42,925 nt of DNA from Tepidisphaeraceae bacterium (GTDB lineage Bacteria > Planctomycetota > Phycisphaerae > Tepidisphaerales > Tepidisphaeraceae), in NCBI GenBank assembly GCA_035656825.1, contig DASRRR010000110.1, forward strand, positions 1-42,925, written 5' to 3'. The notes beneath the pieces were generated by a model. The model worked only from the letters and a program-made list of their open reading frames with translations. It was not told where the DNA came from and searched no databases. Of the stretch, positions 18,610 through 33,999 are shown piece by piece (position 1 is the stretch's first letter; each line of letters begins with the position of its first letter). Position numbers and translations under genes: made by a program.

Positions 18610-18624
18610 GACACAACGTGTGTC
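18610..18624. promoter_or_regulatory. perfect 6-3-6 palindrome GACACA-ACG-TGTGTC nested in an outer GGCCCG/CGGGCC inverted repeat (18592..18629)
   Basis: Directly visible in the intergenic region between the amidohydrolase stop (18363) and the PEP-CTERM gene start (18777). Confidence 0.35.
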
Positions 18625-18776
18625 GGGCCAACCGTATTCGTCCTCGCGATTCGGGACGGCCGGGTCTGGCTTCCAATCCAATTGTGGCTGGTTGTGCGCT
18701 CGCTCTGGCGATGGCGCGCAAGATGCACGTTTGCGTTGGCGCTTGCCCATGGCCTTCCCGCAGGAAGGAGCGACCC

Positions 18777-19721
18777 ATGGGTCGTAGCGCTATTCGGAGC
18801 GGCATCGTTGCCGCTGGTCTGATTCTGGTTGGAAATTCTTCAACCCTGCTGGCGGCAGTCTCTGCGACGGTGGTCCCCGGCACGCTGGTGCAGGGATCGG
18901 TGCAAGCCTCACTCGGGGCGGGCACGACGTACAACAATGAAGGGAGCAATCTTCGTGATTGGCCGCTGGACACGGGTGGGACGGCGACCAACAAGTACGC
19001 CATCAGCCTCACCAATGCCAATTTCAATGGCAATTCCTTTGGCGGGAGCCTGAATTCCATTCTGGCGTTTGGAAATGGAGGCGGCGTGACGCTGAAGTTC
19101 GATTCGCCGATCCATCCGGTCGATGGGCAAAAAGAATTCGGGATCTTCACCGCCCAGATGATCATCGCCTCCAGCGGCGCGATCTTCAGCGGCAACATGG
19201 AGGCCGCAATTCTCGTCAGTGATGATGGAAACAGTTGGTATACGCTGGACGGAGCCTCGGTGGCGTCTCCGACGACGTATGTGGCGACGAGTTACAAGCT
19301 CAATGCGCCGACGATGTCGTATGACTATACGACCTTCGCCAAGGGGTGGACCTACGGATCGCCCGGAACGACGCCGGCAAATCTGAGCGCGCTGGCGGTG
19401 GCGAATTACCAGACACCCATGCCGGATGACTCCCTGTTTAATGGTGCCGGGACCAATGCCCAGCGCTTGGCGCTCAAGACCGACACCTCCACGGCGGATT
19501 ATGACGCAGTCATGGGAACCTCCGGCGGAGGAAACTGGTTCGACATCTCCGGCAGCGGACTGGCCGAGGTGAATTACATTCGCCTTAATGGGGTGAACGT
19601 AGGGACCGGATCATTCAATGGCGACCGCCTGGATGCGGTGTTCGCCAACGCGCTGGCTGTGCCGGAACCAAGCGTGCTGGGCGTGATAATGATGGGAGTG
19701 ATGTTGCGACGTCGCCGGTGA
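18777..19721 (+). CDS. PEP-CTERM sorting-domain protein (secreted, exosortase substrate)
   Basis: GGAAGGAG RBS-like stretch before ATG; signal peptide; C-terminal VPEPSVLGVIMMGVMLRRRR (PEP motif + TM helix + Arg-rich tail). Confidence 0.75.
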   Translation: MGRSAIRSGIVAAGLILVGNSSTLLAAVSATVVPGTLVQGSVQASLGAGTTYNNEGSNLRDWPLDTGGTATNKYAISLTNANFNGNSFGGSLNSILAFGNGGGVTLKFDSPIHPVDGQKEFGIFTAQMIIASSGAIFSGNMEAAILVSDDGNSWYTLDGASVASPTTYVATSYKLNAPTMSYDYTTFAKGWTYGSPGTTPANLSALAVANYQTPMPDDSLFNGAGTNAQRLALKTDTSTADYDAVMGTSGGGNWFDISGSGLAEVNYIRLNGVNVGTGSFNGDRLDAVFANALAVPEPSVLGVIMMGVMLRRRR

Positions 19722-19747
19722 ATGCTGGTTCGTTGATGCTCGCAAAA

Positions 19748-19775
19748 GCCCACCGACCGCGGTCGGTGGGCTTTG
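19748..19775 (+). terminator. Rho-independent terminator after the PEP-CTERM gene
   Basis: Perfect 24-nt GC-rich palindrome GCCCACCGACCGCGGTCGGTGGGC followed by TTTGG, 27 nt downstream of the stop codon. Confidence 0.6.
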
Positions 19776-19811
19776 GATGAACATGCACTCTTCCTTAGAG
19801 ACAGGAGCGCC

Positions 19812-20543
19812 ATGCGCGCGTTTACGTTGATTGAATTACTCGTGGTCATGGGGATTGTGGTGGTAGTGATGGCAATCTTGCTACCCGCGCTGGGAATTGC
19901 CCGGCAGTCGGCGCAGCGCGTGCAGTGTTTGAGCAATCTGCGGCAGATGGTGATTGCGGCCAATATTTATGCGGACCGGTTTCATGGGAGTTATCCCATT
20001 GCGTATTATTCAGATAACTCCGGCGGCGTCGTTACAGATTACGCCTGGGATTTGACGACGATTTCAGGAGGAACTGAGCCGACGCGTGTGGTGGCGGGTT
20101 TGCTTTGGGAAGGGAAAGGAGCGGGAGCGATTCAGCAGTGCCCGTCGTTTGATGGAGATGCGAATTGGCTGGTCGATCCGTTTACAGGATACAACTACAA
20201 CACCAGTTATATCGGGCATGGACAGTTTGAGACGGTGGAGGCGCCAGCGAAGATGGTGGCGATCCGCCGGCCGGTCGAGGTGGCGATCTTTGGCGATGGA
20301 CAGTGGGGAGACGGCGCAAATAAGTTTATGCGCGCCCCTTGGCCGAGTGCGGGGGATCTAGGATTCATCGGCCGCTGGGGCGGGACGCAGGGATTTCGCC
20401 ATCGCGGGAAAACCAATGTCGCATTTTGCGACGGCCATGCGGAGTCGTTGGCGGATCGGTTTGTGGAGAATGCCGATGGGGCGGAGAACGTCGCGAAAGG
20501 AACGGGCTTCTTGTCGGCGGATAATCGGGCATATGGGCAGTAG
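19812..20543 (+). CDS. DUF1559 / H-X9-DG domain protein with prepilin-type N-terminal cleavage/methylation leader
   Basis: N-terminus MRAFTLIELLVVMGIVVVVMAILLPAL (type IV pilin-like class III signal); C-terminal RHRGKTNVAFCDGHAESL contains the H-X9-DG motif. This family is abundant in Planctomycetes/Verrucomicrobia. Confidence 0.8.
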   Translation: MRAFTLIELLVVMGIVVVVMAILLPALGIARQSAQRVQCLSNLRQMVIAANIYADRFHGSYPIAYYSDNSGGVVTDYAWDLTTISGGTEPTRVVAGLLWEGKGAGAIQQCPSFDGDANWLVDPFTGYNYNTSYIGHGQFETVEAPAKMVAIRRPVEVAIFGDGQWGDGANKFMRAPWPSAGDLGFIGRWGGTQGFRHRGKTNVAFCDGHAESLADRFVENADGAENVAKGTGFLSADNRAYGQ

Positions 20544-20634
20544 TCGATTTTTATCCGGGCCTCGTTCACTTCGACCAAAACGATTCCGGGCACCCTCGGC
20601 ATTCCTGATCGGTTGGCCGCGTCTTGCCGGCGGG

Positions 20635-20808
20635 TTACATCTCGAGCGCTGGTTGCATCTCGACAGCGGGTTGCCCGGCGGCCAGCGCCCGGGCGGCGGC
20701 GAGAATGCGCTCCTGCTCGAGGCGGATTTGGGCCCGCGTCAGACGCGAGCCGCGATGTCGTCCTTTGCCATTGGCGCGGCACCTGCGCTGCCGTTCGGCG
20801 GCGGTCAT
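20635..20808 (-). CDS. possible small basic protein (MTAAERQRRCRANGKGRHRGSRLTRAQIRLEQERILAAARALAAGQPAVE...), speculative DNA-binding regulator next to the repeat array
   Basis: Only an ORF with Arg-rich N-terminus followed by a helical-looking segment; no recognisable family; transcribed away from the 21-bp array. Confidence 0.15.
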   Translation of the reverse strand: MTAAERQRRCRANGKGRHRGSRLTRAQIRLEQERILAAARALAAGQPAVEMQPALEM

Positions 20809-20964
20809 GGGTCGAAAGGTTCCCTTTGGGAAAAACGGTTGCATGGCCTTGATTCATCGGCCTATCGGCGATTTGGCTTCAGCCGTTTTGACAATGATAA
20901 CCATCGCCGCCTGGGAGCGATAAAACCGCCTTAAACGCCGCTGGCGACCATCGCGCACCCCATG

Positions 20965-21174
20965 TTTCGTGACGCGCAGTCAATCTTTCGTGACGCGCAC
21001 GCACGCTTCCGTGACGCGCAATCGCGTTTTCGTGACGCGCAACCAGGCTTTCGTGACGCGCAACCGAGCTTCCGTGACGCGCACTTGAACTTTCGTGACG
21101 CGCAATCACATCTTCGTGACGCGCCCCCATACTTCCGTGACGCGCAACTGACCTTTCGTGACGCGCCCTCGACG
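20965..21174. repeat. 10 tandem direct repeats with exact 21-bp period: 13-14-nt conserved core TTYCGTGACGCGC(A) + 7-8-nt variable segment (iteron-like array)
   Basis: Units start at 20965, 20986, 21007, 21028, 21049, 21070, 21091, 21112, 21133, 21154 (all +21). Core is invariant except T/C at position 3 and one unit with CTT; the variable part differs in every unit. Confidence 0.95.
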
Positions 21175-21277
21175 GTGAAAGGCCTGAGATGAAAGAGGGC
21201 GAATGGAAGGGGCAGCGATTCGTCTGTCAGACGCGGCAAAATAAATTGTGTCCCCTTATCAGCGCCCTTATCTGGCC

Positions 21278-21850
21278 TCAATCGGGTGCAGGGTTGGACC
21301 CACGTCCTCCAGATGCGTTCGAGACCGGCGTTCCGGATTGACGGAAGAGCACCGAAGCACCCAAAGCCCAAGCCACGATCCCCCCGCACGTTAACACGAA
21401 TAGGCCCAGAACCGTCCATGGCCCCATGGCTGGCAAGTACCCCGGCACTGGGCTCCCCGCCATCATGCAGATGCCGAGTAGGGCAGCGATTATGTTGAGA
21501 AAGGTCGCAAACCAGCCGATCCCCTTGCGACCACTGGCGTGCTTGCCCCGCGGTAATCCCAGCAACGCGGTTACTCCTGCTGCTATCAATAAAGAATCAA
21601 TCACGCGCACGAATAACAGTCGATCCGCGGTGCGATTGATGCCACACCTCACGGCAAGAAATAAAGTGCCCATGCTCAGGAGGCCGGTGGGCGTAAGCTC
21701 CGACATCGTTGGAATGTGTAAGTTAGGGTCAAACCCGCTGGCGCCGATCAGGATTAGCAGTATGGCGGCAATCCGACCGATTTTGAGGACCAAACCCGGC
21801 GCGCTCCTCGCCTCTTTCCGCCGCTTGCCCGGTGGTGATATTCCCAGCAT
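21278..21850 (-). CDS. hypothetical polytopic membrane protein (4-5 TM) in lower-GC islet
   Basis: Hydrophobic segments IAAILLILIGASGF, LLSMGTLFLAV, LLIAAGVTALLGL, FATFLNIIAALLGICMMA, VLGLFVLTCGGIVAWALGA; start chosen at Met avoiding overlap with the upstream ORF; no family recognised. Confidence 0.4.
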   Translation of the reverse strand: MLGISPPGKRRKEARSAPGLVLKIGRIAAILLILIGASGFDPNLHIPTMSELTPTGLLSMGTLFLAVRCGINRTADRLLFVRVIDSLLIAAGVTALLGLPRGKHASGRKGIGWFATFLNIIAALLGICMMAGSPVPGYLPAMGPWTVLGLFVLTCGGIVAWALGASVLFRQSGTPVSNASGGRGSNPAPD

Positions 21851-21863
21851 CTGATCGGGATCC

Positions 21864-22106
21864 TCACTCACGTCTGGCTCCCTGCCGCAACAAGAGGGTG
21901 ATGAAAAAGACCAGTAGTCCCCCATTCTCGAAAATTCGCGCAATCACCCCGTAGGTACTGCTGATGTGCGTCAATGTCTTGATGGACCATCCAGCGGATT
22001 CTCGCTGACCACCAAGCCAATCAAAAACAAAAGGCGCGGCAATTGATAAAACGAGGCTTATTGCCACGCCGAGAATCGCAATCACAGTTGCAGTCCTGAT
22101 CGTCAT
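21864..22106 (-). CDS. hypothetical small membrane protein (2 TM, 80 aa)
   Basis: MTIRTATVIAILGVAISLVLSIAAPFVF...GGLLVFFITLLL; lower local GC (~50%) than the surrounding ~62%. Confidence 0.35.
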   Translation of the reverse strand: MTIRTATVIAILGVAISLVLSIAAPFVFDWLGGQRESAGWSIKTLTHISSTYGVIARIFENGGLLVFFITLLLRQGARRE

Positions 22107-22230
22107 CGAACCTCACAAAGATCTTGTTTGATTTGATGCCCTGCCAGCACAACTGGCGCACATCATATCGCCACCGTCAGTTCATGACAAATTCGTGCCG
22201 ATGACGCTCCGGAGAAGGCGAGAGGGTAAG

Positions 22231-22390
22231 GAATTGGTTCAATTGCAGTTGCATTGGTTCCAGTTTGGTCCTGCGGCGGCGGGGTTATGCGGGCTGGATG
22301 TCTCCGCTTCGGAGTAAATCGCGGAGCAGGATGGTTTCGGAGAGGTTATCGCAGGGGCTGCATTCTTCCCAGTCGATCCAGACGTGGGCG
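22231..22390. repeat. left copy of a ~155-bp direct repeat (duplicate of the 3' end + downstream flank of the isomerase gene at 23946..24785)
   Basis: Aligns with 23891..24047 at ~80-85% identity including ccagtttgRtc, gcggcggg, gcgggcYggatgtctc, aaatcgcgRag.aggatggtttcggagag, tcttcccagtcgatccagacgt; one 6-bp in-frame indel (cgcttc). Confidence 0.8.
22285..22390 (-). pseudogene. 3'-terminal gene fragment (~35 codons) paralogous to the C-terminus of the xylose-isomerase-like TIM-barrel gene; fused in-frame to unrelated upstream sequence in ORF 22285..22731
   Basis: Encoded HVWIDWEECSPCDNLSETILLRDLLRSGDIQPA* vs intact gene's YVWIDWEECNTCDNLSETILLRDLLRDIRPA*; similarity ends abruptly at ~22390. 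Confidence 0.55.
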
Positions 22391-22872
22391 GGCGTTTGAC
22401 GATTGAGCGATGCGATCTTATCCGGCCCGCATTCGCTCCGACAAGAACGATCCTGGCCCCTTCGGTCGCAACCAGCGCCGCAACACCCGCTCGCCGTCGA
22501 TCCCTCCAGCATTCGCTTGATACTGTGTACTTCGCTCTCGTTCTTATTCGCTTCGCTTGGCGCGATGGGCGATCGCTCATTGATTGGTGTCTTATCGACT
22601 GATCTGCCGGAATCCGTCGATGCGACTGCCCATCGCGCCAGGGAGGGCACAAGGTTAACCTGGGGAACCTGGAACTCCTGCGAATACCCCGAATCGCCCG
22701 CTCCCCGCCATCCCGCGAGATCTTTCTTCAAAACCCTGCCAAAATGGCCGTAATCGTCGAAATGAGATAGTAGATTATCGGCGAATCGGCGGTATCTTCA
22801 TCTGTAGTCAATCATGGCATATTTGCTGGTTGGCCGTTGCTTCGAACAGGCTTATTGCTGGAAGGCTGAAAA

Positions 22873-23853
22873 ATGAAGATTGCACACACTCGCGCGAAGC
22901 GCGGTTTCGTCCTCGCTGTGTTCGTAACCACGCCTCTGTTCATCACCGCGGCCGCCCGGGCTTCTTACTACGTCTCTGATTCCGGCTCCTCCACCGCCGC
23001 GGCGGGGAGTACCTATCCCAACGATCCCGGCAACAGCGCGGGTCGCGACGGGGTCGCCGGCTCGGACAGCCACTCATTTTTCAGCGGAAGCGTCGCACAA
23101 CCGATCGTCACTGGCACCATCTCTTCCTCCACCGACGGCACCGCGTATCAGCCGATCCATCAAACCTATCTCGCCCAGGACGCCGGCGGCAATCTCGAAG
23201 ACACCGCCACCGTCGGCGCGCTCCATTCCACCATCTCCGCCTACAGCAACACCGGTTTGCCCATGGAAAACGTCAACAACGGCAACGCCAGCGCCCATAC
23301 CTCCGACTACCTGACCTGGGGCGATACCGTCCACTTCGTCAGCGCCAATCCCGCAGGCTCCTATTACACGGTTGCTCTTGGACTCGATGCCGCCATCGAT
23401 GCGACCGGGACCTTCAGCCCCTACGAGACGGGCTCTTTCGTCGGCAAAGCGCAGGCTACCGTCACCATCTCCGGCAATCTCGATTTCTCGCAGTACTACC
23501 AACCCATCTTCAATATTCAGGCCCTCCAAGGCATTCAGTCCGACGGCACCATCGTCAACACCAGCTACATCAGTCCCCAAACCTCGCTCACGTTTTTTGT
23601 CCCCTATCAGGAGTTTATCAATCTCACGTTTGCCGCCACTCTTCAAACCGACGCCTATGCCACCCTCGGCGACGGTCAGGCGCTGGTCAACGCCGGCAAC
23701 ACCGCTCTCTTCGCCATCTCCTCACCCGACCCGCTGGCTTCCTATACATCCGACTCGGGCACCGTGTATGCGACAAGCCTGCCGGAACCCGCCGCGCTCG
23801 GCCTCCTCGCCGCCCCCGCGCTGGCGCTGGCCCATCGCCGCAATCGCAAATGA
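22873..23853 (+). CDS. PEP-CTERM sorting-domain protein (second paralog), secreted
   Basis: Signal peptide MKIAHTRAKRGFVLAVFVTTPLFITAAARA; C-terminus SLPEPAALGLLAAPALALAHRRNRK; C-ending codon usage, opposite to flanking genes. Confidence 0.75.
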   Translation: MKIAHTRAKRGFVLAVFVTTPLFITAAARASYYVSDSGSSTAAAGSTYPNDPGNSAGRDGVAGSDSHSFFSGSVAQPIVTGTISSSTDGTAYQPIHQTYLAQDAGGNLEDTATVGALHSTISAYSNTGLPMENVNNGNASAHTSDYLTWGDTVHFVSANPAGSYYTVALGLDAAIDATGTFSPYETGSFVGKAQATVTISGNLDFSQYYQPIFNIQALQGIQSDGTIVNTSYISPQTSLTFFVPYQEFINLTFAATLQTDAYATLGDGQALVNAGNTALFAISSPDPLASYTSDSGTVYATSLPEPAALGLLAAPALALAHRRNRK

Positions 23854-23890
23854 CCCGTTGTGCGTCGGGACAAAGAACTCGAGACGATCA

Positions 23891-24047
23891 GGAATCATTT
23901 CCTATATAGTTCGATTGTTTCCAGTTTGATCGTTCAGCGGCGGGATTAGGCGGGCCGGATGTCTCGGAGCAAATCGCGAAGGAGGATGGTTTCGGAGAGA
24001 TTGTCGCAGGTGTTGCACTCTTCCCAGTCGATCCAGACGTATTCGAT
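23891..24047. repeat. right copy of the ~155-bp direct repeat (authentic 3' end of the isomerase gene)
   Basis: See left copy 22231..22390. Confidence 0.8.
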
Positions 24048-24785
24048 GCCGATCCAGCCGGGGTAGTTTTGGGCGCGCAGGCGGGAGAGGATGTCGTTGT
24101 AATTAATGATGTTGTCCTTGACGGGGCATTGCAGGCGGCCTTTTTTGGCGCCGCGGGCGTGGAAGTGGGAGGCGTAGGGCAAGAGCGGGTGGGCGGCGGA
24201 GTCGGGGAGGCCGGAGCGGGTGAAGTGGGTGTAATCGAGCGTGAGCGTGAGTCCGGGGACGGAGGTGACGAGTTGGAGGGCGCTGGCGGGGTCGGGGGCG
24301 AGGGAGCCGACGTGGGCTTCTACGCCCAGGGTGATTTGGTGAGAGGCGGACTGGGCGACACGCCAGGCGAGTTCATCAGCGGCGCGAGAGAAGGAGGTGG
24401 CCGCGTCTTCGTTGGGATTGAGAATTCCCGGGAGGGTGGTGACGTGGTGGCAGCTCGCGGCGGAGGCGTAGTCGAGGGTTTTGAGGAACGCATCGCGGGC
24501 GTGGGCGCGGCGGGAAGCGTCGGGGTGGTTGATGGCGTAGGGGGTGAAGTCGGGGTCGAGCTGAAGGAAGACGTCGGCGCATTGGAGGTTGAGGTCGGAG
24601 AGTTTGCTGGCGAGGGCGCGGCCGGAGCGTTCGGGGCCGGCGGCGAATTCGCGGCTGGGCCAGAGGTGAGAGCGCTCTTCGAAGAGGCCGATGTCGACGC
24701 CGTCGAGGTTGAGCATGAAGATGAGTTTGAGGACGCTGTCGTGGGGGAGGAGGGGGAAGGTGAAGTCGGCACAGGCTAGTTTCAT
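23946..24785 (-). CDS. sugar phosphate isomerase/epimerase (xylose isomerase-like TIM-barrel protein)
   Basis: MKLACADFTFPLLPHD... typical AP-endonuclease-2/xylose-isomerase-like TIM barrel N-terminus and length (279 aa). Confidence 0.7.
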   Translation of the reverse strand: MKLACADFTFPLLPHDSVLKLIFMLNLDGVDIGLFEERSHLWPSREFAAGPERSGRALASKLSDLNLQCADVFLQLDPDFTPYAINHPDASRRAHARDAFLKTLDYASAASCHHVTTLPGILNPNEDAATSFSRAADELAWRVAQSASHQITLGVEAHVGSLAPDPASALQLVTSVPGLTLTLDYTHFTRSGLPDSAAHPLLPYASHFHARGAKKGRLQCPVKDNIINYNDILSRLRAQNYPGWIGIEYVWIDWEECNTCDNLSETILLRDLLRDIRPA

Positions 24786-24807
24786 AATTGAATCCTCGGA
24801 GGACAGA

Positions 24808-26229
24808 TTACTTGGTCAATTCGATCTTGGTGATCTGGTTGGCTTTGACTTCGATGCGTTTGGCGGCGGGGTCGGGGGCATCGTGAGGGAGGCCGGCGGT
24901 GGAGAGGAGGTAGGGGCCGGGGGGGACTTTGGTGAATTCGAAGGTGCCGTCGGGGTGGACGGCGGTGTCGCCGCTCCAGTTGATGGGGTGGTCGCCGGTG
25001 GAGGTGATGCTGACGTTGCGCGGGTTGGCTCCATCGGCGGGGGTGAGGAGAGCGCCTTTGACGGTGCCGGTGGCGGTCATGTGGAGGGTGAGGTGGGTGT
25101 AGTCGGGGCGGGTGCCATTGGAGGGTGGGCCGAAGATGTGAATGGAGTCGAGTTGTTCGTGAGAGTCGTCGCTGGCGAAGAGTTGGAAGGAGCCTTCGGG
25201 GAGGTTGGGGAGTTGGAAGGCGCCGTGGGCGTCGGTGACGGCTTTGACGGGGTCAGGGAGAAGGTAGCCGCGACCGTCGAGGGCGATGGTGCAGGTGGCT
25301 TGGACGGTGACGCCGGGGAGGGACGTGCCGTCGGTGTTCAGGACGGTGCCGGAGGCGGTGATGGAGGTGGTGAGCTGGACGGTGTGGTGTTTGAGGGTGT
25401 TTGGGCCGAAGGTCTCGGAACCGAGGGTGCGGGAGGCGTGGCCGGGGGCGGCGACGGAGATGCGGTACTTGCCGGCGGGGACGTGTTTGAGTTCGAAATG
25501 GCCGGCGGGATCGGATTGGGTCTGGGCGATGGTCACGTAGCTTTTAGAGTTGTAATTGGCGACGGTGATCTGGGCGGCGGGAATGGGTTTGGAGGAGAGG
25601 AGGTCGTAGACATCGCCGCGGAGGACGGAGGCGTCGGCGCGGTCGTAGCCGGCAGAGGTGGCGCGTTCATCGACGAGGGTGATGCCGGGGGGTAGTTTGA
25701 TTTGGGTCCAGTCGATGCCTTTGCCGTCGGGGCCGGCGATGTTGACGGCGAGCGATGGGGGCGGAACGGAATTGCGGATGCCGCCTCTGGGATCGTCATT
25801 GGTCAGGGCATTGAAGGGATTGTTGAACATTTGATGCCAGGAGCGCGGGGTCCAGACGATGAAGGTCCAATCGACGTGGGTATCCTTTGAGGAGGGATCC
25901 ATGTCCTGGAGCCAGAAGCTTTCTTCAAGGCCTTCGCGGATGATGAGGCGGCGTTCGGGGGCGTTGATTTTGGCGAAGGTGTCGAGGGCATGTTGGAAGG
26001 AGGCGGTGTCGCCGCGATAGAGGAAGTGGAATTCGCCGCCGCCGTGTGGGGGGCCTTCCCAGTACGCGATGCGGGAGTGGAGGTTGACGAGGTCGACGCT
26101 GCCGGCTGGCCAATTGCCATCGCCCGCGGGAGCGTAGCCGGTATTGCCGGTGATGAGGGCGCGGGCAGGGAAAGAGGTGAGGAGAAGCATGGCGGAAAGG
26201 ATGCCGATGCGGAGTTTGGTGGGGGACAT
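24808..26229 (-). CDS. secreted protein with repeated carboxypeptidase-regulatory-like (Ig/transthyretin-like) domains
   Basis: Signal peptide MSPTKLRIGILSAMLLLTSFPARA; three segments of the GxV.D..G.P...A.V.....S..T.T...G.F.L..VP.G.Y type. Confidence 0.5.
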   Translation of the reverse strand: MSPTKLRIGILSAMLLLTSFPARALITGNTGYAPAGDGNWPAGSVDLVNLHSRIAYWEGPPHGGGEFHFLYRGDTASFQHALDTFAKINAPERRLIIREGLEESFWLQDMDPSSKDTHVDWTFIVWTPRSWHQMFNNPFNALTNDDPRGGIRNSVPPPSLAVNIAGPDGKGIDWTQIKLPPGITLVDERATSAGYDRADASVLRGDVYDLLSSKPIPAAQITVANYNSKSYVTIAQTQSDPAGHFELKHVPAGKYRISVAAPGHASRTLGSETFGPNTLKHHTVQLTTSITASGTVLNTDGTSLPGVTVQATCTIALDGRGYLLPDPVKAVTDAHGAFQLPNLPEGSFQLFASDDSHEQLDSIHIFGPPSNGTRPDYTHLTLHMTATGTVKGALLTPADGANPRNVSITSTGDHPINWSGDTAVHPDGTFEFTKVPPGPYLLSTAGLPHDAPDPAAKRIEVKANQITKIELTK

Positions 26230-26250
26230 GGGTTCCCTTTCCGTTGGAGT

Positions 26251-27060
26251 TCAGGTCTCGTCGGCGGGTGTCATGAAGCGTGTGGCGCCGCCGTTGTCCC
26301 ATTCGGCGGCGGCGAGGTAACCGCCGTCGATGATGAGGCTGGTGCCGGTGACGCCGGCGGAGTCTTCGGTGCAGAGGTGGAGGATGTTGCGGGCGATGTC
26401 CATCGGCGTGAGGGGAATCCCCATCGGCACTCGGCGGAGGCGCTGGGCGAGGGCGGCGTCGGGATCGGGGAGCGTGCGCATGTGGTAGCGGAGCATGGGG
26501 GTGTCGGTGATGCCGGGGCAGACGCAGTTGCAGCGCAATCCGATGGAGGCGTAGTCGAGGGCGATGGAACGGGTGAGCTGGAGGACGGCCCCTTTGGAGG
26601 CGGTGTAGGCGGGGGTGTCGGGCTGAGCCACGAAGGTGCCGACGGAGCCGATGTTGACCATGTAGGAGCGGGGTTGTTTGAGGAGGTGCGGGTAGGCGTG
26701 CTTGATGGAGAAGAAGATGCTTTTGAGGTTGACGGCCATGAGCTGGTCCCATTCCGGCTCGGAATATTCATGGAGCGGTTTGACGTGAACGATTCCCGCA
26801 CAGTTAACGAGGATGTGGAGGGAGCCGAAGTGGGAAACGGTTTGATCAAGGGATTGCCGGACCTGGGATTCGATGGAGACGTCGGCAGGGATGGCCAGGG
26901 CACAGGGAAGTTCTTTGGCGAGCTGGTCGAGCGGAGCGGAATTGATGTCGACGAGCGCGACGTTGGCCCCTTCGGCGGCGAAAAGCTTAGCGACCGCTTG
27001 GCCCATGCCAGAGGCGGCGCCAGTGATCCAGGCAGTTTTGTTTTGCAAGCGGTTTGACAT
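26251..27060 (-). CDS. SDR-family oxidoreductase (3-oxoacyl-ACP reductase-like)
   Basis: TGAASGMGQA NAD(P)-binding motif, NCAG, catalytic YTASKGAV (YxxxK). Confidence 0.85.
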   Translation of the reverse strand: MSNRLQNKTAWITGAASGMGQAVAKLFAAEGANVALVDINSAPLDQLAKELPCALAIPADVSIESQVRQSLDQTVSHFGSLHILVNCAGIVHVKPLHEYSEPEWDQLMAVNLKSIFFSIKHAYPHLLKQPRSYMVNIGSVGTFVAQPDTPAYTASKGAVLQLTRSIALDYASIGLRCNCVCPGITDTPMLRYHMRTLPDPDAALAQRLRRVPMGIPLTPMDIARNILHLCTEDSAGVTGTSLIIDGGYLAAAEWDNGGATRFMTPADET

Positions 27061-27182
27061 GGAGTTGAGGGAGTATAGTCGGTGGAAGAGGTTTTGATGA
27101 GAAGGGGTTTGGGGAAAGGCAAAAATTCCTGCGCGAAGCGATTTTTGGACTGGGGTTTGTCGATTCTATATCCTCTTCTCCA

Positions 27183-27857
27183 ATGCCTGAACCATTGATA
27201 TTTTCTCCGGGTCCGACAGCCGGCACGCTCCGTTCGGCGGCGGGTCAGATTTTGACTCCGCCGGCCGATTGGGTGCTGGTCCCTCCGGGAGATCCGGCGC
27301 TGACCCGCCGGCTCAAGCTGGCCGGTCCGACCTGGCTGGTGCAGGAAAAGGTGGGTCGCAAACTCTTCTCCAAGGGCCTCTATGCACCCGAGGCCATTGT
27401 CGCGCAAATCCGCGTGGATTTAGCCACGGAGCGATCTGATCCGGCGTATGCCCGTAAGCAAGCGAACGCTGCGCAGCGGCGCGACCGCGACCAGGCCGAA
27501 TATGTCCATTCATTCGAGGCCGCTGTCTTTTCGTACCTGGCGTTCCATCCGGCTCATACGGACCTCGCCAGGCATCTGGCCGCCGCCATCGCAGTCCACG
27601 CCACTCCCGTCGGCTCCGGAACCGTTGCCCGGACCGAGCGCATCCCAATTCAAGACCGCGCCGAAGCCGCCACGATCGCGTGGTTGCGCCACCAGACAAC
27701 CACATATGATCAAATGAGCGTCCCGCGTATCAAAGGCAAGCGCCGCGAAATTCGCCGGGCGCTTGCCGAACAATCCAAACGCTTACTCGCCATTTATCGC
27801 AGCGACCGCGCCATCGACCCGGCACAATGCCCGTTGCACCGCGCCTTGCAACCCTGA
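27183..27857 (+). CDS. conserved hypothetical protein (no family assigned)
   Basis: 224-aa ORF with coherent codon usage, divergent from SDR gene; composition shifts from G/T-ending to C-ending codons in its second half. Confidence 0.5.
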   Translation: MPEPLIFSPGPTAGTLRSAAGQILTPPADWVLVPPGDPALTRRLKLAGPTWLVQEKVGRKLFSKGLYAPEAIVAQIRVDLATERSDPAYARKQANAAQRRDRDQAEYVHSFEAAVFSYLAFHPAHTDLARHLAAAIAVHATPVGSGTVARTERIPIQDRAEAATIAWLRHQTTTYDQMSVPRIKGKRREIRRALAEQSKRLLAIYRSDRAIDPAQCPLHRALQP

Positions 27858-27927
27858 GGCAATTCGCCACAGCGCCCTGCACAACACAGGCGCGAACCCT
27901 ACAGTATATAGAACGCATTACTCTCCC

Positions 27928-29211
27928 ATGACGCCGCTGCGAACCATCCTCGCCATCCTGACATGCACGGCTTCTCTAACGCTGGCCGACACGGCCCCTT
28001 ACGACGACGCCCCGATCCATTATTCCACCACCCGCCCGGTCGACCCCGCCACCCGCCTCCAATCCCGCCTCGACGACGGCAGCGCCACCCTGGACTCCAC
28101 TTCCCCGGCCAATCTGCTGCGCTCGGTCCTGACCGCACTCAATGTCCCGGTCAGCTCCCAAACGCTGGTCTTCTCGCGCACCAGCCTCCAGCGGACCCTA
28201 ATTTCTCCGTCGAACCCCCGCGCCCTCTACTTCAACGACGACACTTACGTCGGCTACGTCCCTGGCGGACGCGTCGTTGAAATCGCCACCACCGATCCGC
28301 ACCTCGGCTCAACCTTCTACACCATCGACCAACACCCCCGATCCGCAGCCCACGTCATCCGCCAAACCGACAACTGCCTCGAGTGTCACGCCACCAACAT
28401 GACTCACGACCTCCCCGGCCTGATCATCCGTTCCGTCTTCCCCGACTCCACCGGCGAGCCGATCCTCCCCGCGGGCACCTTCCTGACCACCCACGAATCC
28501 CCGATCAGTCAGCGCTGGGGTGGATGGTACATCACCGGCTCGCTCCCCGGCGCGTCCATGGCCAACACACTCTTCGACGACACCGACCCGTCCAATCCCA
28601 AGCCGCTGCCGGCGCTGGACCCGACCAGGGAGTTCAACACATCCCTGTTTCCGACTCCTTACAGCGACCCGGTCGCGCTGCTGGTTCTTGAACACCAGGT
28701 CGAAGCCCATAACCGCCTCTCCCGCGCCCTCTACGCAAGCGAGCAGGCACTGCATGATGAAGAAGCGATTAACCGCGAGCTTGACCGCCACATCCCAGCC
28801 GGCACACACTCTGACTCGACGATCTCCCGCATCCATCACGCCTGCGACCCGCTCGTCGAATACCTGCTCTTTTCCAACGAAGCCCCTCTGCACGGCCCGA
28901 TCAGCGGTCCGACCTCCTTCGCGTCCGACTTCTCCAAACGAGGCCCGCGCGACCCGCTCGGCCGCTCCCTCCGCGACCTGGACCTGCGCACCCGTCTTTT
29001 CAAATATCCCTGCAGCTACCTGATCTACTCTCCGTCATTTGACTCCCTCCCCACTCCCGCGCTCGAATACGTCTACCAACGCCTATACGACGTCCTTACC
29101 GACGCCGACGATTCAAAATCTTTCGACAACCTCTCCGCCAACGACCGTCAGGCGATTCTTGAGATTCTTCGCGCGACTAAGCCGAACCTGCCGGCGTATT
29201 GGGCGCACTGA
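27928..29211 (+). CDS. secreted protein with a single CXXCH (c-type haem-binding) motif
   Basis: Signal peptide MTPLRTILAILTCTASLTLA; DNCLECHATNMTHDLPGL contains C-L-E-C-H; start at internal Met 27928 because the upstream part of ORF 27763 overlaps the previous gene and lacks signal-peptide logic. Confidence 0.55.
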   Translation: MTPLRTILAILTCTASLTLADTAPYDDAPIHYSTTRPVDPATRLQSRLDDGSATLDSTSPANLLRSVLTALNVPVSSQTLVFSRTSLQRTLISPSNPRALYFNDDTYVGYVPGGRVVEIATTDPHLGSTFYTIDQHPRSAAHVIRQTDNCLECHATNMTHDLPGLIIRSVFPDSTGEPILPAGTFLTTHESPISQRWGGWYITGSLPGASMANTLFDDTDPSNPKPLPALDPTREFNTSLFPTPYSDPVALLVLEHQVEAHNRLSRALYASEQALHDEEAINRELDRHIPAGTHSDSTISRIHHACDPLVEYLLFSNEAPLHGPISGPTSFASDFSKRGPRDPLGRSLRDLDLRTRLFKYPCSYLIYSPSFDSLPTPALEYVYQRLYDVLTDADDSKSFDNLSANDRQAILEILRATKPNLPAYWAH

Positions 29212-29240
29212 TCCCGCTCCTCTGCTATAACCCGCAGACT

Positions 29241-30494
29241 ATGTCCGAACCGACCATCGCTCCCGAGCCTGATCTGAACCAGCCCCCCAAGGGGGCGCTT
29301 GGCATCATCTTCCTCATTGCCTTAATCGACCTCTTGGGCTTTGGGATCATCATCCCGCTCATGCCCTTTTACGCCAAGATGTATGAGGCGTCCGCGTTGC
29401 AGGTCACCCTCCTCTTTTCCATTTACTCCATCTGCCAATTCATCGCCTCTCCGCTGCTGGGTGTGATCAGCGATCGGTATGGTCGGCGTCCCGTGCTGAT
29501 CCTCTCTCAGATCGGCTCAGCCATTGGCTATGTTCTGCTCGGCGCTGTCACACAGTTCCATTGGACCAGCGCAACGGTCGCACTTCTACTTATCTACACG
29601 TCCCGCATAATCGACGGCATCTCCGGCGGCAATATCTCCACCGCCCAGGCCTATATCTCCGACGTCACCACCGCCGCCAATCGCAGCAAAGGCCTCGGCG
29701 TGATCGGTGCCGCCTTCGGCATCGGATTCACCCTCGGACCCGCCTTCGGAGGCATCCTCGGCGGCATCCACCCCTCTTTCCCCGGCTACGCCGCCGCCTG
29801 CTTCAGCCTCCTCGCCGCCTTCCTGACCTACCTCAAACTCCCCGAATCCCGCCAGCATAAACCCGTCGAAGCCGAAGCCTGGCTGCACCCGCGCGTCTTC
29901 GTACCCATCCTCCGCAAGCGCATCCTCCTCCACCTCCTGCTCATCGGCACCGTCTCCATGGGCGCGTTCGTCATGATGGAATCCACCATTGCCATCTACC
30001 TCGCCCGCGACGACACCTTCCATTGGAACATGACTAAAGTCGGCCTCTACCTCTCCCTCGTCGGCCTGGTCATCGCCGGCGTGCAGGGCGGCTTGATCGG
30101 CCGCCTGACCAAGCTCTTCGGCGAATGGCCCCTCACCCAGACCGGCCCCCTTCTCGTCGCCGCCGGCATGGCGCTCTTCGTCGGCGTCGATTATCACCCG
30201 GTCCTCTACATCCTCATCCCCGCCGGCATCATCAACGCCACCGGCCGCAGCATCACCACCCCCACACTCTACGCCCTCATCTCCAAATCCTGCGCCCCGG
30301 ACGAACAAGGCACCGTCTTCGGGCTCCTCCAAGGCCTCTCCGGCATCGCCCGCGTCATCGGCCCCATCGTCGCCGGCATCGCCTACGAACATCACCCCAC
30401 CAGTCCCTACTGGCTCTCCGGCTCCATCATGCTCGCCGTCATGCTCTGGACAATTTCCGTCCACTCCATGTCCAAACGCACCGTGGCGATCTAA
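29241..30494 (+). CDS. MFS transporter (12-TM, Tet/TCR-like)
   Basis: LGFGIIIPLMPFY, GRRPVLILSQIGSAIGY, motif-A-like loop, 12 hydrophobic segments. Confidence 0.8.
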   Translation: MSEPTIAPEPDLNQPPKGALGIIFLIALIDLLGFGIIIPLMPFYAKMYEASALQVTLLFSIYSICQFIASPLLGVISDRYGRRPVLILSQIGSAIGYVLLGAVTQFHWTSATVALLLIYTSRIIDGISGGNISTAQAYISDVTTAANRSKGLGVIGAAFGIGFTLGPAFGGILGGIHPSFPGYAAACFSLLAAFLTYLKLPESRQHKPVEAEAWLHPRVFVPILRKRILLHLLLIGTVSMGAFVMMESTIAIYLARDDTFHWNMTKVGLYLSLVGLVIAGVQGGLIGRLTKLFGEWPLTQTGPLLVAAGMALFVGVDYHPVLYILIPAGIINATGRSITTPTLYALISKSCAPDEQGTVFGLLQGLSGIARVIGPIVAGIAYEHHPTSPYWLSGSIMLAVMLWTISVHSMSKRTVAI

Positions 30495-31057
30495 ACCGGA
30501 TCGGTAGAATTCCCCGCCGGCAACGACGGCTGATTACCGCCATCCGACATCATTTCGCTTACCACCTCTTTCGTCCGCTTATCATTCAAAAGCTGGCTGA
30601 TCAGCACCCGCCGATACCCCGTGCTGCGAAGCTGCTCCTTAATGGCATCCGTCCGCTCCTGCCGCAGCTTCTCATTCTGCGTGTATAACGCCTCTTCCAG
30701 CGCCTCGTTCTCCAGCAGCAGCGCGTACATCGCCTCCGCCTTTTTCCCGCCCGATGAAAACAACCCGCCAAACCCTGCGGCTTTCTTACGGTATTCCTCC
30801 ACGCGCTGGTTCAGCACCCGCACCTGCTCGGCCAGCGCCTCATTCTGCGCTTTCAGATTCGCCAGCTCCGTCTCATACAGAGTGCGAAATCCCTTCTGCG
30901 TCGTAAACAACTCCTGTTCCTTGGTCGCCAGATTCCGGCGATGCCCCACGCCGGCGAAGAATCGGCCCATCTGGTAGCCAAGGAAGAGAAGCACAATTAC
31001 CACCACCCCCGCGATGACGTAGAAGAGAATTTGGATGAGTTGGCTGTCGAAATGCAT
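30491..31057 (-). CDS. membrane-anchored coiled-coil protein (hypothetical; YhcB/DUF1043-like topology)
   Basis: N-terminal TM ILFYVIAGVVVIVLLFLGY followed by heptad-rich ELANLKAQNEALAEQVRVLNQRVEEYRKK. Confidence 0.45.
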   Translation of the reverse strand: MHFDSQLIQILFYVIAGVVVIVLLFLGYQMGRFFAGVGHRRNLATKEQELFTTQKGFRTLYETELANLKAQNEALAEQVRVLNQRVEEYRKKAAGFGGLFSSGGKKAEAMYALLLENEALEEALYTQNEKLRQERTDAIKEQLRSTGYRRVLISQLLNDKRTKEVVSEMMSDGGNQPSLPAGNSTDPV

Positions 31058-31151
31058 GCAATCATAGTAGCGTCAATCGCCGGATCGGGCAGCGCGGGAT
31101 AGAAGACTTATTTGGGACGTTCTGGCCGCTGGGGTAAAGTCATTGGCTGCG

Positions 31152-31952
31152 ATGAACCAGCCGCTTCCCTCTATCTCGATCGTCACGCCGTCCTACAACC
31201 ACGGGCGATTCATTGATCGAACCATCCAAACTGTCCTGAATCAATCGCTGCCTCCTGTCGAATATCGGGTCATGGACGGCGGATCGACGGATGAAACCAT
31301 CGCCATCCTGAAAAAGTATAGCGACCGCCTGCAATGGGTATCCGAAAAAGACAAAGGACAAGCCGACGCCATCGACCGCGGATTTCGCCAATGCACCGGC
31401 GATATCATTTCCTGGCTCAATTCTGATGATCGTTTCGCCAATGAAAACGTTCTCAAAAGAGTCGCGGAGGCGTTCGCGGCCGATGCAACCGTCGACATCG
31501 TCTACGGCGATGGCGAATTGATCGATCTGGATGGGCACTCTTTCCGGCAATCGCGCGGAGCCGCTGTCAAACAGGCGAAAGAGCTGCTCATCCTCCCGGC
31601 CGGCTTTGCGCTTCAGCCAGCGATCTTCTTTCGCCGGCAACTCTATCTCGATGCCGGCGGAATCGACGGCCGATTCTTTGGCGCATTCGACTATGACCTC
31701 TGGCTCAGAATGTTCGCAAAGGCCCGCCGAGTGACTTATCTCCCCGAAGTCCTCGCCCAGGCGACCTGCCACCCGGACGCTAAATCCGTCAAAGGAATGT
31801 GGCGGCTGATCGGCGAACTCGTCGAAATCAAACGCAAGAACGAACGCCCCTTCGCATTAACCTGGCTTGAGCGCATCCGCATGCGGATCAATGTGCTCGG
31901 TCTCTACGCCTACTACGTCGCCGTGCGCACCGGATTGCGGCGGGCGGTCTAA
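31152..31952 (+). CDS. glycosyltransferase family 2
   Basis: ISIVTPSYNHGRFIDRTIQTVLNQ...YRVMDGGSTDET...DKGQADAIDRG...WLNSDD (DxD). The ORF as listed begins at a TTG (31143); first ATG at 31152. Confidence 0.85.
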   Translation: MNQPLPSISIVTPSYNHGRFIDRTIQTVLNQSLPPVEYRVMDGGSTDETIAILKKYSDRLQWVSEKDKGQADAIDRGFRQCTGDIISWLNSDDRFANENVLKRVAEAFAADATVDIVYGDGELIDLDGHSFRQSRGAAVKQAKELLILPAGFALQPAIFFRRQLYLDAGGIDGRFFGAFDYDLWLRMFAKARRVTYLPEVLAQATCHPDAKSVKGMWRLIGELVEIKRKNERPFALTWLERIRMRINVLGLYAYYVAVRTGLRRAV

Positions 31953-33017
31953 ATGGGAAAACGACTCGGCATCAACCTCGTCTTCCTCAACCCTGACCGC
32001 GCCGGCGGCGCCGAAACCTACGCACGGTCCCTGCTGCGCGAATACCAGCAATTGGACCTCGACCTTGACGGCCGGATAAAACTCTTCGTCGGACGCAGGC
32101 ATGGATTGAATGTCGACCCCGAGCGTTTTGAGCTGGTCGAATGCAACATCAACCCCCGCCATCAATATCGCCGAATCATCTGGGAACAGACGCATCTGCC
32201 CGGCATTCTCAACCGCCATCGGTTGGACGTTGTGCATTTTCCTTATTCGGCCTATCCAATTCGCTATCGCGGGAAATGCGTCGTCTCTCTTCACGACACG
32301 ACGCGCTTCGTCGCACCGCGCGGCGTGCCGCGGGCGCAAATCTGGTATCGCCGCGTGATGGAAGAACGCCTGCGCGACCGCGGCCATCACGTTATCGCCG
32401 TCTCCCATGCCGATGCGGCAATCCTACAGCAGCATTTAGGTCTGCCGGATCAACAGATGTCCGTCGTGTATCACGGCGTGTCTGATCAGTTCCGCGTCGA
32501 ACGCCCTTTTGAAGGAACACGCGACTATCTCCTTTGGGTGGGCCGACCCTACGAACACAAGCGATTGGACACGCTTATCGAAGCCTATGAAATGATGACC
32601 AGCAACGCGCCGAAATTGAGGTTAATCGGCATAAACGATGCTTCACGTTTCAGCGTTGGAGCAAATGTATCCGTTGAAAAAGGCGTCAATCACACGGACC
32701 TGGCTGGTATCTATCAACGAGCACTAGCGCTTGTATTTCCAAGCTCATACGAAAGTTTTGGCTTGCCCGCGCTGGAAGCGATGGCGTCCGGCACAGCGGT
32801 GATCTGTTCCGACATCCCCGCTTTCCGCGAACTGTTCTCCGGAGCAGCGGAATTCACCAAAGTTGCGGATGCCGGCACTCTGGCACAAGGGATCGAAAAG
32901 ATTATTAAAAATCCCGCGCTCAGATGCGAAATGGAATTGAAAGGGATCGAACTCGCCCGGGAATTCACCTGGCGGCGGTGCGCAGAGGAGACGATGCGAA
33001 TCCTCAGGCGCGTTTGA
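31953..33017 (+). CDS. glycosyltransferase family 4 (GT-B, retaining)
   Basis: C-terminal GRPYEHKRLDTLIEAY...FPSSYESFGLPALEAMASGTAVICSDIPAFRELF (EX7E motif). Confidence 0.85.
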   Translation: MGKRLGINLVFLNPDRAGGAETYARSLLREYQQLDLDLDGRIKLFVGRRHGLNVDPERFELVECNINPRHQYRRIIWEQTHLPGILNRHRLDVVHFPYSAYPIRYRGKCVVSLHDTTRFVAPRGVPRAQIWYRRVMEERLRDRGHHVIAVSHADAAILQQHLGLPDQQMSVVYHGVSDQFRVERPFEGTRDYLLWVGRPYEHKRLDTLIEAYEMMTSNAPKLRLIGINDASRFSVGANVSVEKGVNHTDLAGIYQRALALVFPSSYESFGLPALEAMASGTAVICSDIPAFRELFSGAAEFTKVADAGTLAQGIEKIIKNPALRCEMELKGIELAREFTWRRCAEETMRILRRV

Positions 33018-33999
33018 ACTCGGGACGATGAGAAAGAGCCGTCAGCTTGGACCAGGCGCGTATCGTGCGCACACTGAGATACGCCAGCGGGAGGAGCATG
33101 GCGATGCAGAACCCTGACAGGTAGAAAGAGTAGGCGAAGCAGAACGAGGCGTCGTAGACGATAAGCCAGAGGAGGCCGACGAGCATCAGTTGCTGGCCGG
33201 CTTCGCGTGGGGTCGGAAAGCTGCGGCGAATGTAGAACGCGACGCCAAGGAAAACCGCCGCCGCCAGACACGGAATTAAAAGGCCCGGGGTGAGGAGCAT
33301 CACCTGTGAAAACGATCCTTCCGCCGAGCGATGCGCATAGATCGCGAGGATCACGATTGCGTTAATGCTGACCAGCGAAGTCACCACAAACGCCCAGTGA
33401 GCCCGTGTCAGTGGCGGACGCTTTTGCTCCCAGCGATACGCGACCGTCGAAAGGAGCGTAACGTGGTTGAGCAGCAGCAATGGCTGCCATAACACCGGCA
33501 GATGCGGGGCGGGGATGGCGGCGTGGAAAAATCGGATCAGGCCGAGCGTGAGAAGTCCGGGAGCGACCAGATATTTGCCGGCAAAGTCATAAAATGTGAT
33601 GAGCACGATTGCGAAGCAGACGATGATCACCGGGCGCTGGCCGAGCGCCGGAGAGAGCTGCGAATAAAACTCTGCCGAGCCGATCGCCAGTAGTGCCAGT
33701 GCCGCGGCAATGATATGGGCGGTGTTGACGCCAATCCGCCCCGAGGGGAGGGGGCGATGCGCCGCCGTCAAGGCATCGCGGCGGCGGTCGATGATGTCAT
33801 TGAGCGACATACCAAACCCGTATAAGCCAACAGAAAGCAGGACGACAAAGAGCAGCGCCAGCGGCGAAATGGGAAGGCCGGAAAAATGGCGGTGTAGTAC
33901 ATACGCACAGGAGGAATCCGCAATCGCTGTAAAGACCAGCGCCATGCGCGTCAGTTGCAACAGCGGAAGTAAGCGATTGGGAAGACGCATAGTCGGCAC
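33004..33999 (-). CDS. UbiA-family prenyltransferase (integral membrane)
   Basis: NDIIDRRRD (NDxxDxxxD) in first cytoplasmic loop, 8-9 TM segments; alternative start at MALVFT (33945). Confidence 0.75.
   Translation of the reverse strand: MPTMRLPNRLLPLLQLTRMALVFTAIADSSCAYVLHRHFSGLPISPLALLFVVLLSVGLYGFGMSLNDIIDRRRDALTAAHRPLPSGRIGVNTAHIIAAALALLAIGSAEFYSQLSPALGQRPVIIVCFAIVLITFYDFAGKYLVAPGLLTLGLIRFFHAAIPAPHLPVLWQPLLLLNHVTLLSTVAYRWEQKRPPLTRAHWAFVVTSLVSINAIVILAIYAHRSAEGSFSQVMLLTPGLLIPCLAAAVFLGVAFYIRRSFPTPREAGQQLMLVGLLWLIVYDASFCFAYSFYLSGFCIAMLLPLAYLSVRTIRAWSKLTALSHRPEFKRA

Follow-up and report, generated by a model that had tools for sequence, protein, structure and literature searches.

A stranded second copy of an isomerase gene end beside a PEP-CTERM gene in an uncultured planctomycete: a possible Campbell-type insertion scar

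In a 42,925-nt stretch of DNA from an uncultured soil planctomycete (Tepidisphaeraceae bacterium, assembly GCA_035656825.1, positions 1 to 42,925 of contig DASRRR010000110.1; hereafter the window), the 3' end of a sugar isomerase gene is present twice in direct orientation. One copy is the working end of the isomerase gene, the other is a stranded fragment 1.66 kb further downstream, and a spacer (spacer X) and a gene for a protein with a PEP-CTERM-type signal (PEP2) lie between the two. Our favored explanation, held tentatively and with somewhat less than even confidence, is that a Campbell-type insertion once struck the 3' end of the isomerase gene and left this locus as its scar. An initial annotation of this DNA had already suggested the integration of a circular element carrying a copy of the isomerase 3' end; the anatomy of the locus fits this suggestion, whereas neither the recombinase nor the empty site was found. 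The locus is made up of the following segments.

22213..22284, minus strand: left copy, non-coding part, homologous to the 72 nt 3' of the isomerase stop codon (51/72 positions identical to 23874-23945, ungapped)
22285..22385, minus strand: left copy, coding remnant, 32 codons reading VWIDWEECSPCDNLSETILLRDLLRSGDIQPA and a TAA stop codon; stranded pseudo-3' end
22364..22385 and 24019..24040, no strand assigned: 22-nt block TCTTCCCAGTCGATCCAGACGT, shared without mismatch by the two copies and located at the gene-proximal edge of the left one
22386..22872, no strand assigned: spacer X, 487 nt, in which neither a gene nor an RNA family nor a recombinase remnant was detected
22873..23853, plus strand: PEP2, a 326-aa all-beta protein with the C-terminal PEP-CTERM-type signal LPEPAALGLLAAPALALAHRRNRK, convergent with the isomerase gene
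23874..23945, minus strand: right copy, non-coding part, the 72 nt 3' of the isomerase stop codon, starting 20 nt past the PEP2 stop codon
23946..24040, minus strand: right copy, coding part, the working isomerase 3' end (last 30 codons and stop codon), in frame with the gene
23946..24785, minus strand: intact gene for a 279-aa xylose-isomerase-like TIM-barrel protein (sugar phosphate isomerase/epimerase; PF01261)

The direct repeat is real and far above chance. Local alignment of positions 22213-22385 with 23874-24040 gave a score of 164, compared with 20.7 ± 2.4 (maximum, 34) for 300 shuffles, and 136 of the 167 aligned columns (81%) are identical, with a single 6-nt gap; a separate repeat search also recovered this pair, in two stretches of 92 nt (75% identity) and 77 nt (90% identity) that the 6-nt gap sets out of line. 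This precise alignment bears out the ~80 to 85% identity in direct orientation that the initial annotation had reported; its coordinates located the repeat correctly but left the left copy ~18 nt short and made the right copy 5 to 7 nt too long. Tandem accretion is unsupported, the window being without a third copy of the repeat. Like the insert of a transposon or an insertion sequence (IS), the segment lies between direct repeats of target sequence, but the repeats here are 167 to 173 nt long and 19% diverged, as opposed to 2 to 14 nt and identical, and no transposase or terminal inverted repeats (at 22386/23873) were found. Transposition with target-site duplication was rejected on these grounds, and the earlier remark that the repeats are too long for such a duplication was a reasonable one.

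It is hardly credible that the copies come from two strains misjoined during metagenome assembly. The window is indeed a metagenome contig, and a single sample is the probable source of all three copies known. A Logan contig (SRR11833507) produced by a second assembler, probably from reads of the same sample as the window, is 100% identical to the window over positions 19748-33853; the two assemblers thus agree across the whole region, and there is therefore no reason to suspect an artifact. Furthermore, a misjoin at the shared 22-mer would merge the copies instead of keeping both of them around 1.5 kb of unique DNA, and the left copy must be joined to spacer X in at least one actual molecule.

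The right copy provides the isomerase gene with its working end. As the initial annotation had claimed, it is the genuine 3' end, in frame with the rest of the gene, although it runs from 2 nt of a Tyr codon through the 30 final codons and the stop codon to 72 nt of downstream DNA, in place of the ~35 codons and ~55 nt first estimated. It keeps the conserved YVWIDWEECNTCDNLSETILLRD motif of the homologs, and no terminator-like fold was found in its non-coding part. The isomerase itself matches PF01261 over residues 46-251 (79.9 bits; cutoff, 31.1), and among the 5.8 billion proteins searched it has 4597 homologs at E ≤ 1e-20, the closest of which is encoded on a 1-kb contig and shares 75% identity.

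The left copy is a stranded pseudo-3' end of an isomerase gene. Its stop codon is in register with that of the isomerase gene, and it has two extra codons relative to the right copy; because the closest homolog ends RSYD, this 6-nt difference is probably a deletion in the working copy. At the site where the isomerase of the window and the 8 compared homologs have N-T or N-E, the left copy has S-P, which replaces an otherwise invariant Asn and a Thr/Glu, and it is on account of this replacement that we take the left copy to be the decaying one. Upstream of its Val, the reading frame of the left copy runs on into an open reading frame (ORF; 22285-22731, minus strand) whose upstream 115 residues match neither the isomerase nor any Pfam family, as expected from the initial description of a stranded fragment that continues into unrelated sequence. 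An insertion is favored by the contrast between the isomerase C terminus, intact and conserved, and the left copy, from which an otherwise invariant Asn is gone.

The gene-proximal boundary of the repeat is sharp: immediately beyond the 22-nt block, the two sequences are unrelated and similarity drops to random. This block is the longest identical run of the repeat, and even a search tolerating 3 mismatches located it at just two sites in the window. We consider it a candidate crossover core. A 20-mer of this core had 5 matches in metagenome contigs, all of them attributable to chance and none accompanied by an isomerase homolog. At the distal boundary, the repeat stops 20 nt past the PEP2 stop codon on the right side and, on the left side, ~25 nt from a promoter-like site of the gene for an 80-aa membrane protein (memb80).

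A locus of similar anatomy is known in E. coli K-12, where the cryptic prophage e14 occupies the 3' end of icd and icdC is the stranded pseudo-end (PMC13626634). In our alignment of icdC, which lies at the far end of the prophage, with the terminal part of icd, the two matched over 216 nt at 87% identity in direct orientation, with an identical 11-nt block at the gene-proximal edge, mostly silent changes, and homology extending ~50 nt past the stop codon at lower identity. As in e14 and phage 21, the locus described here has direct repeats of a 3' end, an intact metabolic gene at one end, whose own 3' end would be insert-borne, and a pseudo-end, putatively the original one, stranded in direct orientation on the far, downstream side of the insert. 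The resemblance to e14 extends to the size and identity of the copies (~170 to 216 nt, 81 to 87%), to the predominance of synonymous changes, to the homology beyond the stop codon, and to the gene-proximal identical block, of 11 nt in e14 and 22 nt here. The two differ in that e14 spans 15.2 kb and carries integrase, excisionase and phage genes, whereas the segment described here spans 1.49 kb and carries one PEP-CTERM gene, with no integrase or other recombinase found inside it. Moreover, the excision of e14 has been demonstrated, whereas the present cassette is known from its sequence.

In the scenario that we favor, the isomerase gene would have ended, before the event, with the present left copy, with the small membrane-protein genes directly next to it. 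A circular DNA of ~1.66 kb, probably from a related organism, would then have recombined with the isomerase gene at or near the present 22-nt block, and would have brought with it spacer X, the PEP-CTERM gene, and a diverged version of the last 30 isomerase codons followed by ~72 nt of downstream DNA. The incoming copy would now complete the gene, so that the isomerase would have stayed intact, and the original end, displaced 1.66 kb downstream, would be decaying, with S-P instead of the conserved N-T. The exchange may have been catalyzed by a site-specific recombinase that is now lost or acted in trans, recombination through plain homology being the alternative. Observation covers the repeat and its boundaries, the intact gene, the stranded fragment and the pattern of substitutions; that the event ran in this direction, passed through a circular intermediate and involved a site-specific recombinase is our inference. 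A single Campbell event would explain both boundaries, why the stranded copy lies on this side and in this orientation, the selection-like distribution of the substitutions, how the fragment survived, and the flips in strand polarity; one insertion would account for both of the polarity changes around PEP2, and the survival of a useless fragment through 15 to 29% divergence is easier to explain because the divergence would predate the insertion.

The substitutions between the copies suggest that most of the divergence arose while both ends still belonged to functional genes. Over the 30 shared codons, 10 of the 90 aligned coding positions differ (1, 2 and 7 at codon positions 1, 2 and 3, respectively), 7 of these differences being synonymous and 3 nonsynonymous, so that divergence amounts to 5% at codon positions 1 and 2 and to 23% at position 3, a value near the 29% (21 differences in 72 nt) of the non-coding part. 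A left copy evolving neutrally ever since the split should, judging from the non-coding divergence, have accumulated ~8.7 changes at positions 1 and 2, and 3 of 60 are seen [P(≤3 of 60) = 0.018]. This deficit argues against a duplication in situ, in which a unit made of spacer X, PEP2, the downstream DNA and the last 95 nt of the isomerase gene would have been duplicated and the first X-PEP2 deleted, or in which the 173-nt end would have been copied from its template to an ectopic site 1.5 kb away. In both versions, PEP2 would already have been the convergent neighbor, nothing would have been imported, and the left copy would have been junk from the start.

We regard such a duplication as possible but rather unlikely. 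Among spontaneous rearrangements in bacteria, none are commoner than tandem duplication and deletion, and these require no mobile-element gene, which matches the absence of such genes here; in addition, the codon usage of PEP2 is that of the lineage itself, and spacer X and the DNA to the left of the left copy are both compositionally neutral, as if they had once been contiguous. An internal ratio test, which compares the 7 of 10 differences at third positions with the 0.46 expected under in-situ duplication, gives a p value of only ~0.11. On the other hand, a functionless fragment would have had to survive 15 to 29% divergence without a frameshift and without an indel in its 72 non-coding nt, the tandem route requires two events, and the polarity flip between PEP2 and the isomerase gene requires a further, separate one. 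The initial annotation had envisaged a tandem duplication followed by replacement of the interior; its first step is retained in the scenario just described, and its second is unnecessary, since the deletion of one interior copy suffices.

The substitution pattern, by indicating two once-functional gene ends, also agrees with the left copy being the remnant of a second isomerase gene, either a paralog or an older resident allele. In this case, which we judge unlikely, the 5' 740 nt of the second gene would have been lost or replaced upon the arrival of X-PEP2, or of a larger block including the isomerase operon, through rearrangement or homology-facilitated illegitimate recombination. Nearby paralogs do exist elsewhere, one locus (L021) having two adjacent copies and another (L026) a second PF01261 gene 4 kb away, and the locus studied here was remodeled earlier, a gene for a CarboxypepD_reg-domain protein lying between the SDR gene and the isomerase gene in this contig only. 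Against a second gene, the other 88% of it could not be traced in the spacer or in the rest of the window, and no truncated close paralog is present among the 4597 homologs, the next best being 75% identical. Furthermore, the limit of the replacement would have had to coincide exactly with that of the downstream homology, 20 nt from the PEP2 stop codon, a position that a single Campbell event explains without extra assumptions.

No close relative is available in the databases for comparison, and a repeat layout of the type A-R-B-R'-C cannot be polarized without an outgroup. In the 19 genome loci and several metagenome contigs compared for synteny, all of them at most 75% identical, the SDR-isomerase pair is common, and the downstream genes of the window never accompany it; memb190, a membrane protein encoded in the left flank, has no homolog. 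In relatives, the SDR gene directly precedes the isomerase gene, and the two are adjacent or overlapping in several phyla (loci L005, L006, L009, L010, L023, L024, L025 and L027). The CarboxypepD_reg gene that separates them here (24808-26229, minus strand, 473 aa) would be a second insertion at this locus, and its codon usage is fully native.

Several observations weigh against a Campbell-type insertion. Pfam and NCBIfam searches covering PEP2, the six-frame pieces of spacer X of at least 55 aa, and the main ORFs of the window revealed no integrase, transposase or other mobile-element gene in the scanned ORFs of the 43-kb window or in the spacer X pieces, and the phage, plasmid and viral collections hold nothing similar. 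The pattern of an empty site, searched with exact anchors joining the left flank to the body of the isomerase gene over the length of one repeat, had 0 matches in metagenome contigs, a result of low power given that the collection missed a 20-mer of the source contig itself, and exact look-ups of the flanking proteins (memb80 and the CarboxypepD_reg protein) returned only the same three contigs. The insert would measure just 1.49 kb and contain one gene, and this gene has the codon style of the lineage, so that it is not obviously imported. The 22-nt block encodes the most conserved motif of the protein, VWIDWEE, and an identical run of 22 nt at the edge has a chance probability of ~0.1 at 90% identity. 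Lastly, the signal of selection is weak: its p value is 0.02 to 0.11, depending on the estimate of the neutral rate, with more cautious estimates or the internal ratio test putting it at ~0.06 to 0.11, and it rests on 10 coding differences.

The missing integrase would no longer be needed if the Campbell integration had proceeded by RecA-dependent homologous recombination, with a circularized fragment of a related genome sharing ~170 nt of isomerase homology and with no dedicated recombinase at any time. The final anatomy would be the same as in the scenario that we favor, and the identical blocks of 22 nt and 17 nt could be the crossover points. We nevertheless find this route quite improbable: known systems recombine very inefficiently over 170 nt of 81% identity, owing to minimal processing segments and mismatch-repair barriers, the circularization of a 1.66-kb fragment would be left unexplained, and there would be no reason for the gene-proximal position of the identical block.

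Elements that keep attachment (att)-type repeats and have lost their recombination genes are known as cis-mobilizable elements (CIMEs) (PMC5704250). The locus resembles a CIME in having att-like direct repeats, of putative att status, that include the target gene's end, and in its lack of recombination genes. CIMEs differ in that they are defined by their descent from integrative and conjugative elements (ICEs) or integrative and mobilizable elements (IMEs) and by their mobilization by a related element integrating alongside; the window yielded neither a related ICE or IME nor a third att copy. We think it very improbable that the 1.66-kb unit is a living miniature cassette, that is, a single PEP-CTERM gene with a replacement end that is moved to the 22-nt site by a recombinase encoded elsewhere. 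Such a cassette would amount to a recombinase-less shuffling of exosortase substrates in Planctomycetota.

The coordinates and strand first assigned to the PEP-CTERM gene (22873-23853, plus) are correct. The C terminus of PEP2 scores just under the cutoffs of TIGR02595 (15.4 versus 16) and PF07589 (15.1 versus 20.7); its homolog P0122 passes both (22.2 and 24.7, respectively), and 4 of 10 other relatives also pass TIGR02595. The consensus of the PEP2 family ends VPEP...RRRR, with P304-E305-P306 nearly invariant in the family alignment, and the AlphaFold2 model of PEP2 (predicted local distance difference test score, 85; predicted template modeling score, 0.80) places residues 308-323 in a C-terminal helix. 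We saw no exosortase gene in the window. A full HMMER scan for relatives of PEP2 yielded 35 representatives, sequences without genomic context, and P0122, at 44% identity, was the sole relative returned by a word-indexed search. The contig of P0122 (L029) stops 38 nt past the gene, in a short TAAATGG tandem repeat (9135-9172) that is probably the reason why the assembly stopped there.

Spacer X gave no Pfam match at E ≤ 1 for its six-frame stop-to-stop pieces of at least 55 aa, Rfam found nothing over positions 20500-24200, and the folding of the spacer as a whole is not unusual (z-scores of -0.3 and -0.9). It contains a solitary hairpin (22558-22576 / 22622-22640) with 19-nt arms that are 89% complementary, 13 nt of them perfectly, and a 45-nt loop; there is no U-run on either strand, and the motif is not repeated elsewhere in the window. 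Promoter and terminator scans remained at chance level, and no conserved hairpin was found in the downstream part of the two copies.

The initial annotation had described PEP2 as a gene with C-ending codons and a strand composition opposite to that of two G-rich flanks. The description of the gene holds, but the left flank is G-rich only within the repeat copy: on the plus strand, the GC skew is +0.43 in the right flank, +0.30 within the 173-nt left copy, +0.05 beyond it, and -0.07 in spacer X. The relative synonymous codon usage (RSCU) of PEP2 correlates with that of the isomerase gene (r = 0.91), and both genes prefer C-ending codons, as do most of the genes on either strand of the contig, among them ftsY and htrA-like genes. 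Given this correlation, PEP2 is therefore not foreign to the lineage, and a foreign origin by codon usage was rejected.

That the opposite skew merely results from the opposite strand of the gene was rejected as well, since the skew follows the DNA strand within blocks and the third positions of P0122 are a mirror image of those of PEP2, with a GC skew at third codon positions (GC3 skew) of +0.73 for P0122 versus -0.55 for PEP2, and of -0.65 to -0.84 for the oppositely oriented neighbors of P0122. In the block from 3.9 to 17 kb of the window, the minus-strand genes have a C content at third positions (C3) of 0.55 to 0.75, and the plus-strand HlyD, ACR and GH92 genes have a G content at these positions (G3) of 0.55 to 0.67. 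The strand skew is extreme, in 1-kb bins reaching ±0.3 to 0.43 for GC skew and ±0.8 for GC3 skew, and oppositely oriented neighbor genes show C3 values of ~0.75 versus G3 values of ~0.67. Its sign changes at ~3.9, 17, 22.9, 23.87, 27.1, 31 and 37 kb, abruptly at gene boundaries, with neutral blocks at 17 to 22.9 kb and 31 to 37 kb. The same feature is found in L029 and L024, and it is lacking in the planctomycete loci L005, L006, L009 and L023. The polarity of PEP2 is opposite to that of the isomerase block and equal to that of the block at 27.2 to 31 kb; the left copy has the polarity of the isomerase gene, the DNA to the left of PEP2 being otherwise neutral. The polarity flip around PEP2 is compatible with an insertion, without being specific to it.

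In the region to the left of the repeat, 18618-22212, two membrane-protein ORFs without homologs accompany a second PEP-CTERM-like gene and an H-X9-DG/DUF1559 pseudopilin-like gene. Its skew is neutral, its codon usage departs from that found elsewhere in the contig (RSCU correlation with the isomerase gene, r = -0.02 to 0.28), and it may be the more foreign part of the locus. Positions 20931-21182 hold a tandem array of ~12 units of 21 nt, which read as heptads FRDAQxx on the plus strand and CASRKxx on the minus strand; the array matches no family, and no gene is called there in the source annotation.

As such, the feature is an ordinary one, a scar of a familiar type in a new host; in evolutionary terms it is a minor footnote, and the strand-specific base composition of this lineage may merit more attention than the repeat itself. 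If the locus does result from an insertion, it would provide an example, from an uncultured soil member of the Tepidisphaeraceae, of a strategy already familiar in prophages of E. coli and in streptococcal islands: the DNA that arrives is aimed at the end of a housekeeping-type gene and carries a spare one, which lets the host gene survive. The cargo would in this case be one surface-protein gene, and the finding would bear on the turnover of PEP-CTERM repertoires.

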